From Eledone cirrhosa (lineage: Eukaryota), in assembly GCA_964016885.1 (NCBI GenBank), contig OZ024741.1, positions 93,620,001 to 93,684,000 on the forward strand: a stretch of DNA of 64,000 nt. The letters run 5' to 3'. A program made the translations under genes and the position numbers. This document shows, one piece after another, positions 9,533 to 12,570 of this stretch (position 1 is its first letter; every line of letters starts with the position of its first letter). A model generated the notes under the pieces. That model searched no databases. It saw only the letters and a list, made by a program, of their open reading frames with translations, and was not told the DNA's origin.

Positions 9533-9693
9533 AAATTGGAATAAATGCTCTGAAATAGCGATATATATGTGAATATAGACATAGAATATTCGAAAATATT
9601 CTGTATGTTTATAATAAACATTTTGAAGACCTAATCGCTATAGAATAGAATACGTCACGTATTACAATTAGATTCTCGATAAAAGCAAGGGAA

Positions 9694-9736
9694 GTAATCT
9701 ACGCGTTTCATTCTCGTTAGAAATCATCAGGACTAC
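9694..9736 (-). ncRNA. Type I hammerhead (also 10004-10046, 10314-10356)
   Basis: Reverse complement of the motif at 10544-10586. Confidence 0.85.
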
Positions 9737-10543
9737 ATATCCAGTGCTTTTATCGAGAATGACACAGCTAGAGACTTATAGAATACTTAGCTGTGTACAG
9801 GAACTGGTTTGAAAGAGCGGTTGCCGGTCCGGCAGAAATTAGAAATTGGAATAAATGCTCTGAAATAGCGATATATATGTGAATATAGACATAGAATATT
9901 CGAAAATATTCTGTATGTTTATAATAAACATTTTGAAGACCTAATCGCTATAGAATAGAATACGTCACGTATTACAATTAGATTCTCGATAAAAGCAAGG
10001 GAAGTAATCTACGCGTTTCATTCTCGTTAGAAATCATCAGGACTACATATCCAGTGCTTTTATCGAGAATGACACAGCTAGAGACTTATAGAATACTTAG
10101 CTGTGTACAGGAACTGGTTTGAAAGAGCGGTTGCCGGTCCGGCAGAAATTAGAAATTGGAATAAATGCTCTGAAATAGCGATATATATGTGAATATAGAC
10201 ATAGAATATTCGAAAATATTCTGTATGTTTATAATAAACATTTTGAAGACCTAATCGCTATAGAATAGAATACGTCACGTATTACAATTAGATTCTCGAT
10301 AAAAGCAAGGGAAGTAATCTACGCGTTTCATTCTCGTTAGAAATCATCAGGACTACATATCCAGTGCTTTTATCGAGAATGACACAGCTAGAGACTTATA
10401 GAATACTTAGCTGTGTACAGGAACTGGTTTGAAAGAGCGGTTGCCGGTCCGGCAGAAATTAGAAATTGGAATAAATGCTCTGTACACAGCTAAGTATTCT
10501 ATAAGTCTCTAGCTGTGTCATTCTCGATAAAAGCACTGGATAT

Positions 10544-10586
10544 GTAGTCCTGATGATTTCTAACGAGAATGAAACGCGTAGATTAC
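10544..10586 (+). ncRNA. Type I hammerhead (repeated every 310 bp: 10854, 11164, 11474, 11784, 12094, 12404)
   Basis: gtagtc CTGATGA t ttct aacg agaa t GAAA cgcg TA gattac. Palindromic stem III ACGCGT, GUA site. Distal stem I ttctcgataaaagca/tgcttttatcgagaa (10521-10535/10593-10607). Confidence 0.88.
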
Positions 10587-12570
10587 TTCCCTTGCTTTTA
10601 TCGAGAATCTAATTGTAATACGTGACGTATTCTATTCTATAGCGATTAGGTCTTCAAAATGTTTATTATAAACATACAGAATATTTTCGAATATTCTATG
10701 TCTATATTCACATATATATCGCTATTTCAGAGCATTTATTCCAATTTCTAATTTCTGCCGGACCGGCAACCGCTCTTTCAAACCAGTTCCTGTACACAGC
10801 TAAGTATTCTATAAGTCTCTAGCTGTGTCATTCTCGATAAAAGCACTGGATATGTAGTCCTGATGATTTCTAACGAGAATGAAACGCGTAGATTACTTCC
10901 CTTGCTTTTATCGAGAATCTAATTGTAATACGTGACGTATTCTATTCTATAGCGATTAGGTCTTCAAAATGTTTATTATAAACATACAGAATATTTTCGA
11001 ATATTCTATGTCTATATTCACATATATATCGCTATTTCAGAGCATTTATTCCAATTTCTAATTTCTGCCGGACCGGCAACCGCTCTTTCAAACCAGTTCC
11101 TGTACACAGCTAAGTACTCTATAAGTCTCTAGCTGTGTCATTCTCGATAAAAGCACTGGATATGTAGTCCTGATGATTTCTAACGAGAATGAAACGCGTA
11201 GATTACTTCCCTTGCTTTTATCGAGAATCTAATTGTAATACGTGATGTATTCTATTCTATAGCGATTAGGTCTTCAAAATGTTTATTATAAACATACAGA
11301 ATATTTTCGAATATTCTATGTCTATATTCACATATATATCGCTATTTCAGAGCATTTATTCCAATTTCTAATTTCTGCCGGACCGGCAACCGCTCTTTCA
11401 AACCAGTTCCTGTACACAGCTAAGTATTCTATAAGTCTCTAGCTGTGTCATTCTCGATAAAAGCACTGGATATGTAGTCCTGATGATTTCTAACGAGAAT
11501 GAAACGCGTAGATTACTTCCCTTGCTTTTATCGAGAATCTAATTGTAATACGTGACGTATTCTATTCTATAGCGATTAGGTCTTCAAAATGTTTATTATA
11601 AACATACAGAATATTTTCGAATATTCTATGTCTATATTCACATATATATCGCTATTTCAGAGCATTTATTCCAATTTCTAATTTCTGCCGGACCGGCAAC
11701 CGCTCTTTCAAACCAGTTCCTGTACACAGCTAAGTATTCTATAAGTCTCTAGCTGTGTCATTCTCGATAAAAGCACTGGATATGTAGTCCTGATGATTTC
11801 TAACGAGAATGAAACGCGTAGATTACTTCCCTTGCTTTTATCGAGAATCTAATTGTAATACGTGACGTATTCTATTCTATAGCGATTAGGTCTTCAAAAT
11901 GTTTATTATAAACATACAGAATATTTTCGAATATTCTATGTCTATATTCACATATATATCGCTATTTCAGAGCATTTATTCCAATTTCTAATTTCTGCCG
12001 GACCGGCAACCGCTCTTTCAAACCAGTTCCTGTACACAGCTAAGTATTCTATAAGTCTCTAGCTGTGTCATTCTCGATAAAAGCACTGGATATGTAGTCC
12101 TGATGATTTCTAACGAGAATGAAACGCGTAGATTACTTCCCTTGCTTTTATCGAGAATCTAATTGTAATACGTGACGTATTCTATTCTATAGCGATTAGG
12201 TCTTCAAAATGTTTATTATAAACATACAGAATATTTTCGAATATTCTATGTCTATATTCACATATATATCGCTATTTCAGAGCATTTATTCCAATTTCTA
12301 ATTTCTGCCGGACCGGCAACCGCTCTTTCAAACCAGTTCCTGTACACAGCTAAGTATTCTATAAGTCTCTAGCTGTGTCATTCTCGATAAAAGCACTGGA
12401 TATGTAGTCCTGATGATTTCTAACGAGAATGAAACGCGTAGATTACTTCCCTTGCTTTTATCGAGAATCTAATTGTAATACGTGACGTATTCTATTCTAT
12501 AGCGATTAGGTCTTCAAAATGTTTATTATAAACATACAGAATATTTTCGAATATTCTATGTCTATATTCA

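Follow-up and report, generated by a model that had tools for sequence, protein, structure and literature searches.

Analysis of the window (the whole 64,000-nucleotide stretch of Eledone cirrhosa DNA under study) revealed that the 310-bp repeats at 9533-12570 form two inverted arms, which point outwards and each end in (TA)n, and that related insertions fetched from the same genome share this layout and the same two fixed ends. We consider it likely that the family is a non-LTR retrozyme, and that each of its arrays arose in one step, from a Penelope-type reverse transcriptase (RT) rolling on a covalently closed RNA circle made by the ribozyme. Of all features of the array, the inversion and the fixed ends tell us most.

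The initial annotation had described this region as a 310-bp repeat array of about ten almost identical units. The repeats are real, amounting to 9.8 near-identical units with only two substitutions (11117 and 11246); they do not, however, form a single tandem. TRF reports a period of 310 at 9533-10482 (3.1 copies, 100%) and again at 10480-12579 (6.8 copies, 99%), corresponding to two inverted arms that overlap by 3 nt. With unit base 1 set just behind the predicted cut (for instance 10581), the long-end arm (9533..10482, minus strand) comprises 3.06 units with three hammerheads, and its outer (3') end lies at unit base 167, while the short-end arm (10480..12570, plus strand) comprises 6.75 units with seven hammerheads and has its outer (3') end at unit base 130, a position blurred up to 139 by a TA tract inside the unit. 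The arms meet at 10480..10482 in a 3-nt microhomology between unit bases 148 and 210. Only the long-end arm carries a 'tail' of about 35 nt (9533..9569, minus strand), which spans the interval between the two inferred RT start sites. The target flanks are (TA)n-type microsatellites on the left (8245..9532) and on the right (12571..14405), and since both consist of (TA)n a target-site duplication is not readable.

The ten hammerheads that had been claimed were indeed found as complete type I motifs, with the CUGANGA, GAAA and NUH core, stems I-III and an opening at stem I. The first on the plus strand, assigned by motif and pairing, occupies 10520..10608 and recurs every 310 bp. Its distal stem I (10520-10535 with 10593-10608) holds 16 perfect pairs rather than the 15 first counted, and its proximal stem I (10544-10549 with 10581-10586) holds 6. 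These are followed by CUGAUGA (10550-10556), stem II with a U.U mismatch at its base (10557-10570), GAAA (10571-10574), and a palindromic stem III (10574-10579) with a GUA site and a predicted cut after 10580. On the plus strand seven cuts are predicted, after 10580, 10890, 11200, 11510, 11820, 12130 and 12440, and on the minus strand three, at 10320, 10010 and 9700. The cut-to-cut unit delimited by the motif positions (10581..10890, plus strand) is the predicted 310-nt monomer or circle. A looser version of the hammerhead rule was matched by one of 3000 dinucleotide-shuffled units, and among relatives the core is conserved and the stems covary. Rfam scans of the region, corresponding to the hammerhead-model check that had been proposed, gave no hammerhead match at the gathering score or at E<=10; the hammerhead call therefore rests on motif, pairing, conservation and covariation.

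The unit folds more stably than its shuffles, both as a linear molecule (z -3.9) and as a circle (z -4.5), the latter being a fold that the initial annotation had asked to see, and the further hairpins it named are present in the MFE structure. As modelled, the hammerhead is weak on paper as a monomer: stem III in a single unit has at most one pair and a palindromic tetraloop, and in the circle ensemble stem II has a probability of about 0.15 and intramolecular stem III of 0. In a dimer stem III has six pairs, with a computed self-duplex energy of -7.5 kcal/mol, which fits the dimer-type hammerhead suggested at the outset. The one-pair stem III with its palindromic tetraloop resembles that of axolotl HHR_Amex1, and the U.U at the base of stem II that of HHR_Amex2 (PMC7229834); both axolotl ribozymes cleave better as dimers, according to the same source, and differ from the present one in that both weak features are here combined in one ribozyme. 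For Xenopus retrozyme dimers, eight of nine are described as showing no cleavage in vitro (bioRxiv 10.64898/2026.07.22.740005).

The reading as a non-LTR retrozyme fits the unit size, the non-coding tandem layout and the type I hammerhead in each unit. In these respects, and in its GC content below 50%, stable predicted circle, thousands of copies and autonomous Penelope-like elements (PLEs) in the same genome, the family resembles the metazoan non-LTR retrozymes described from coral, mussel and axolotl (PMC7229834), which have non-coding units of 150-450 bp; no LTR layout was seen in the 310-bp repeats. This likeness is drawn from genomic sequence.

Dispersed arrays in (TA)n, also anticipated in the initial annotation, were found genome-wide by pattern search. 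The exact 43-nt core has 4,033 matches in its own genome and none in the controls, and a shorter 3' core retrieves 17,185 units; at a mean array size of 10.2 units per locus, this gives an estimate of about 1,700 insertions. We analysed 111 stretches, namely the window and 110 stretches fetched around members, which were picked by the core (10), the short-end junction (20), the long-end junction (74) or particular variants (6). As they were taken among the matches listed first, mostly on two contigs (C1 and C2), the fetched loci are not a random sample. The repeat family is young, high-copy and protein-free. Two sequencing runs contain one closed contig of 340 nt (310 plus overlap), which was not used as evidence because a tandem array and a circle alike would yield it.

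The fetched loci obey a strict end rule. With ends classed as short (unit bases 125-140) or long (162-173), all 98 classifiable two-armed insertions have one long and one short outer end, and long+long or short+short combinations do not occur among them. The 111 stretches hold 103 two-armed insertions; in three of these the second end is interrupted or falls in an N gap, and two more extend beyond the stretch. Typically, the outer end of one arm lies at about base 130-139 and that of the other at about 163-170, both away from the ribozyme cut. Where loci had been picked via the long end, the opposite end was short in 68 of 68 readable cases. Two pairs (within L053, and L165/L166) are duplicates of a single event. 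A further 12 entries were scored as having a single arm; a pair of these together make up one more long+short insertion spread over two stretches, which leaves about 10 one-armed insertions, counted against the reading of two arms made in a single event.

This layout, with tandem and inverted 5'-truncated arms and a tail of 30-40 nt at one end (98/98), is of the PLE type. Copying by a PLE RT, as proposed in the initial annotation, thus gains genomic support from the inverted arms, the two fixed ends of RT-start type and the (TA)n target. PLEs are described as having an inverted 5'-truncated copy beside a tandem one and a tail of 30-40 bp, often at one end only, and those of the Hydra clade insert into (TA)n (PMC8557442). 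The anole PLE protein cuts and extends both strands; synthesis begins within the RNA, at two neighbouring sites downstream of the hammerhead, the tail being the sequence between them (PMC11167929); the 35-nt offset between the arm ends of the present family matches such a tail. The resemblance to endonuclease-bearing (EN+) PLEs of the Hydra clade (PMC8557442) and to the anole Poseidon element PAc (PMC11167929) therefore extends to the inverted truncated copy beside the tandem one, the 30-40-nt tail at one end, the ends downstream of the hammerhead, and the AT-rich or (TA)n target with both strands primed. It stops at the arms themselves, which in the 310-bp family lack an ORF and consist of many laps of one small unit. 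Furthermore, the start sites of the unit lie on or next to a TA tract, unlike those of PAc, which have no homology to its target, and PAc in vitro displayed no strand difference in start site, whereas the 310-bp family always has one short and one long end (PMC11167929).

The window itself contains an intact, active Hydra-type PLE (36469-44196) with a 737-aa ORF (40270-42480) bearing RWR, DKT, CxCx5C, CxxC and CxH, the motifs given for the Hydra clade. The element is young, with many identical open copies in the genome, and its two-armed insertions are short+long in all four readable pairs (three of six fetched, and that in the window). It displays the end rule but is not a proven helper, because its start offsets differ (cut+52 and cut+141, against +130 and +165 in the 310-bp unit) and its ends do not look like the start region of the unit. 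Local alignment of unit bases 86-200 with the ends of the three PLEs in the window scored no better than shuffles, an HMM of the common start region returned nothing but sister repeats in the fetched loci, and variant start-motif patterns retrieved only sister repeats and the family's own mutants, none attached to an ORF. Accordingly, no autonomous PLE sharing the start region was found among the three window PLEs and the fetched loci, a comparison that took in a minor fraction of the PLE families in this genome. In the loci read, the arms end in (TA)n or in the partner arm and no unit is joined to an RT/GIY-YIG ORF, so that the possibility raised in the initial annotation, of a unit existing only as the pLTR of a coding PLE, does not describe the fetched loci checked.

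The proposed route would begin with transcription of the units. Cleavage by neighbouring hammerheads, probably paired into dimers by the palindromic stem III, would then release 310-nt monomers, and these would be closed by a host ligase, as in known retrozymes. In the (TA)n target both strands would be nicked by a PLE protein, and the two DNA ends would presumably prime at different places, one at unit base ~130-139 and its partner at ~163-170, where the fixed ends lie. Each RT would lap the circle about five times, and up to more than 21 times, before dropping off at scattered positions, and the two cDNAs would be joined by 1-5 nt of microhomology or a short insertion. The lengths and junctions that suggest these last steps are directly readable. 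In 90 simple two-armed loci the arms average about 5 units, with a maximum of 21.7, and the lengths of the two arms are weakly correlated (rho 0.19, p 0.08). The inner ends are scattered over the unit; at inner junctions without inserted bases the overlap is at least 2 nt in 42 of 80 cases, against an expected 19%, and 22 other inner junctions hold 1-36 inserted bases. In its fullest form, the reading is that the arrays are a germ-line record of rolling-circle reverse transcription, in which a two-headed Penelope-type enzyme works on a ribozyme-made, sometimes A-to-I-edited closed circle, primes both cut ends at two fixed sites, separated by 35 nt, and leaves mirror-image arrays in one event; we hold this with as much doubt as belief. 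If it is true, arm length is a readout of RT processivity in vivo, and, since the autonomous Hydra-type element follows the end rule as well, PLEs themselves would be able to move through circular RNA.

The same element and helper could also act on a nicked circle, that is, an unligated monomer held together by the 22-bp stem I, with the RT jumping the gap on each lap. This would explain clonality and core selection equally well, and stem I pairs across the cut with a probability of 0.5-1.0 in the circle ensemble. Moreover, inner ends are depleted at the cut (bases 301-10, 3/204, p 0.001) and enriched at bases 11-30 (24/204, p 0.004); the RT may have paused in the 16-bp stem, or run-offs from a nicked template may have been trimmed. 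On the other side, 1,111 crossings of the cut contain no indel exactly at it; nearby, 1-nt insertions at bases 3-5 are fixed in 11 loci, together with a few substitutions. Nor do ends pile up at base 1: only 2 of 204 inner ends lie within 5 nt of the cut, and arms that start at base 1, preceded by two unmatched bases, number four genome-wide. Known retrozyme monomers are, furthermore, ligated in vivo (PMC7229834). We therefore regard the nicked form as unlikely and favour the covalently closed circle.

A template of a different kind would be a linear multimer, where a parent array is transcribed into long RNAs that stay uncut and are copied by the PLE RT, and the length and uniformity of the new array are inherited from the parent. 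Parent arrays are uniform, a few arrays have rare variants common to both arms, and the anole PLE RT begins internally and used unprocessed RNA in vitro as its main substrate, cleavage being dispensable (PMC11167929). A long uncut transcript needs no live core, and dead ribozymes should then be neutral or favoured, contrary to what was observed. Using patterns that exclude the wild type, we found 15 units mutated at G12/A13/A14/A15.1 and 41 at C3/G5/A6/G8, with no more than two dead-core units side by side, and none of the four multi-hit arrays fetched was clonal. This pattern search over eight core positions thus recovered no clonal dead-core array, against 11.5-17.4 expected from the fixed-variant rate in 93 loci (variant-picked ones excluded). 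As an independent gauge, at the non-core base 156 the first 100 listed of the 126 matches included four clonal arrays. Common variants occupy positions that tolerate change, namely N7, loop II and 287A, where U.U becomes A-U. Hence, selection acts on the ribozyme core.

Sister families preserve every stem, in a different sequence. A table of 19 sister-core rows comprised 14 true sisters, four mutants of the family itself and one spurious match, and in all 14 true sister cores C3:G8 is replaced by U3:A8. Hammerhead cores with U3:A8 are probably active, although our literature search returned no report of it. Pairing of C3 with G8 is supported by a rescue experiment (PMC11167929). Selection and covariation together argue for catalysis, with cleavage as their prediction. 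Older sister repeats have a different hammerhead but the same two end points, and have in common with the unit a start-site region (unit bases about 77-200; 10657..10780, plus strand), which, judging from the sequence, is a putative binding site of the helper protein.

The distribution of substitutions likewise bears on the linear multimer. Of 34 distinct fixed substitutions 10 are changes from A to G, as are 7 of the 133 seen in single units (p 2.5e-4); each of the 10 fixed changes lies in a predicted stem, and eight have a 5' U or A. This excess fits A-to-I editing of the template RNA before copying, although selection for G.U-tolerant changes could explain it in part, pairs being kept by 13 of 22 fixed variants and 15 of 91 single-unit variants. 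An A>G change fixed in every unit requires a one-unit bottleneck, which a multimeric transcript does not provide. Parent-specific single-unit variants are not transmitted to both arms in register, as non-clonal variants recur at the same index of the opposite arm in only 2 of 85 cases, both at one near-clonal site; the template was not one linear multimer read in register. Over generations, arms copied in this manner could, in addition, only shrink. It seems, therefore, quite improbable that long transcripts served as the template.

A route by later satellite expansion has been suggested (bioRxiv 10.64898/2026.07.22.740005), whereby a short PLE-derived copy inserts and is subsequently grown and homogenised by unequal crossover and gene conversion. 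Later duplication or conversion is indeed observed in a minority of arrays: L110 holds a repeated 6-unit block, L150 has adjacent duplicates, and in about 7 of 99 loci (L056, L071, L075, L113, L135, L151 and L158) low-frequency variants are shared by both arms out of register. A hexameric circle was considered for the 6-unit periodicity of L110 and rejected; the opposite arm holds its variants in a different order, for which reason L110 is read as later duplication and conversion. As a general origin of the arrays, gradual expansion is very improbable. Haplotypes vary between loci and not within them. Among 60 loci with 8 or more units (excluding six stretches that were split or duplicated), we counted 110 substitutions present in at most 25% of copies and 85 in at least 85%, with none at intermediate frequency. 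Rare fixed variants (fixed in at most three loci) are found in both inverted arms in 36 of 36 cases where the site is covered by both, and the inner ends fall anywhere in the unit and show microhomology. Mutations are also almost absent from the arrays, with 160 single-unit differences in 347,721 bases, leaving little time for array turnover. Finally, although near-identical inverted repeats within microsatellites are prone to assembly error, and some loci have N gaps or duplicated junctions (L053, L165/L166), an origin of the palindromic arrays in assembly or library fold-back is scarcely credible given that the arms end at different stereotyped bases with different flanks, that the haplotype varies between loci, and that both (TA)n junctions recur in independent short-read contigs from a different run (X3, with loose ends at 11029 and 10750).

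The retrozyme class is already known, and the new part is the two-armed layout of this family together with its end rule. Reverse transcription of circular RNA has been proposed for retrozymes, with PLEs named as strong candidates for the helper (PMC7229834); in the literature consulted, this route was put forward without genomic evidence. Retrozymes have also been linked to pLTRs, with local tandem amplification suggested, and tails or inverted arms go unmentioned in the accessible part of that report (bioRxiv 10.64898/2026.07.22.740005); unlike the retrozymes of its vertebrate survey, the 310-bp unit has no homologous pLTR among the window PLEs and the fetched loci. Dispersed inverted two-armed insertions with two fixed ends in (TA)n set the family apart from the non-LTR retrozymes in the sources at hand. 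Our literature search returned no description of the 310-bp family or of two-armed retrozyme arrays, either of which may be listed in supplements or subscription papers. A likeness in arrangement also exists to the Chlamys elements such as MRC1, non-autonomous derivatives of PLEs that insert into microsatellites as several copies arranged head to tail (PMC8557442). These share 3' sequence with an autonomous family, whereas none was matched to the 310-bp unit, and most are described there as lacking canonical hammerheads, whereas the hammerhead of the unit is under selection.

With about 1,700 natural replicates, the family separates competing ideas on the origin of animal retrozyme arrays by means of core selection, clonality across both arms and the PLE signature at the ends. 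It also makes the retrozyme copying route testable in a compact system: the RNA measures 310 nt, two start sites have been mapped, the target is (TA)n, and the genome itself encodes an intact candidate enzyme. An RT able to write a small circle into repetitive target DNA would, furthermore, be of interest for RNA-templated insertion tools.

Two smaller observations concern the units themselves. Single-unit changes on the ribozyme strand include 25 from T to C and 7 from A to G (p 0.01), a lean towards T>C such as wobble errors of the RT would give. A weak likeness was seen between the 310 and 467 units, with a score reached by none of 200 shuffles and lying within TA-rich sequence.

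Older sister repeats of the 310-bp unit, each about 300 bp long, occur in the E. cirrhosa genome (G000; fetched stretches L060:5040-5530, L080-L102 and L201-L221), and they share with that unit both the start region, i.e., the unit bases (about 77-200 from the predicted cut) within which reverse transcription would begin, and its two end points. The hammerhead of these repeats has a U3:A8 core, a GUC site and a palindromic stem III of 6 bp. Just beyond the long end point, the segment at window 10761-10792 (unit bases about 181-212) is conserved in the 310-bp unit and in the sister repeats, and is a candidate internal promoter or initiator.

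The 310-bp family also includes variant arrays. At L110:1134-5621 (G000:C2:44.35 Mb), three marked units, of which one is mutated at a catalytic core base of the hammerhead, form a block that recurs after exactly six units, and L111 shows a recurrence of five units. The six-unit recurrence is read as a duplication at a later stage; alternatively, recurrences such as this may reflect a multimeric circle. Furthermore, subfamilies of 311 bp carry one extra base 3-5 nt past the cut, fixed across whole arrays (L036, L041, L070, L119, L128, L144, L153, L154, L157, L160 and L164).

A second hammerhead array, with a unit of 467 bp, is located at window 44445-46732. It comprises five hammerhead motifs with a GUU site and two arms set in (TA)n, whose outer ends lie approximately 235 and 303 nt downstream of the predicted cut, and a 30-nt core of its unit occurs 5,212 times genome-wide.

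The window contains an intact, two-armed Hydra-type Penelope-like element (PLE) at 36469-44196, the 737-aa ORF of which (40270-42480) has no match in Pfam. Its terminal repeat (pLTR) carries a minimal hammerhead, with CUGAUGA near 40033 and 44002. This is a young family with numerous identical copies, and a full triple tandem with a period of 4,011 bp is present at G000:C7:78.45-78.46 Mb. A further PLE lies on the minus strand between TA tracts (3874-8246; fragments at 28438-29562) and shares with the 310-bp array the (TA)n tract flanking the latter; it is frameshifted, its RT and GIY-YIG domains both fall under the Pfam cut-off, and its pLTR bears a CUGAAGA hammerhead. The start region of the 310-bp unit has no match in a third PLE ORF (775 aa, RT and GIY-YIG; 55576-57903) or in two Hydra-like endonuclease fragments (24460-25089 and 63384-63962).

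LINE-type elements that have an APE endonuclease and an RT are present in numerous copies at window 209-2797, 14400-35300 and 48880-54630, and TA tracts interrupt several of these copies. Finally, a lone hammerhead-like motif at 61800-61850, with a stem I of only 4 bp, may be a chance occurrence or a remnant.
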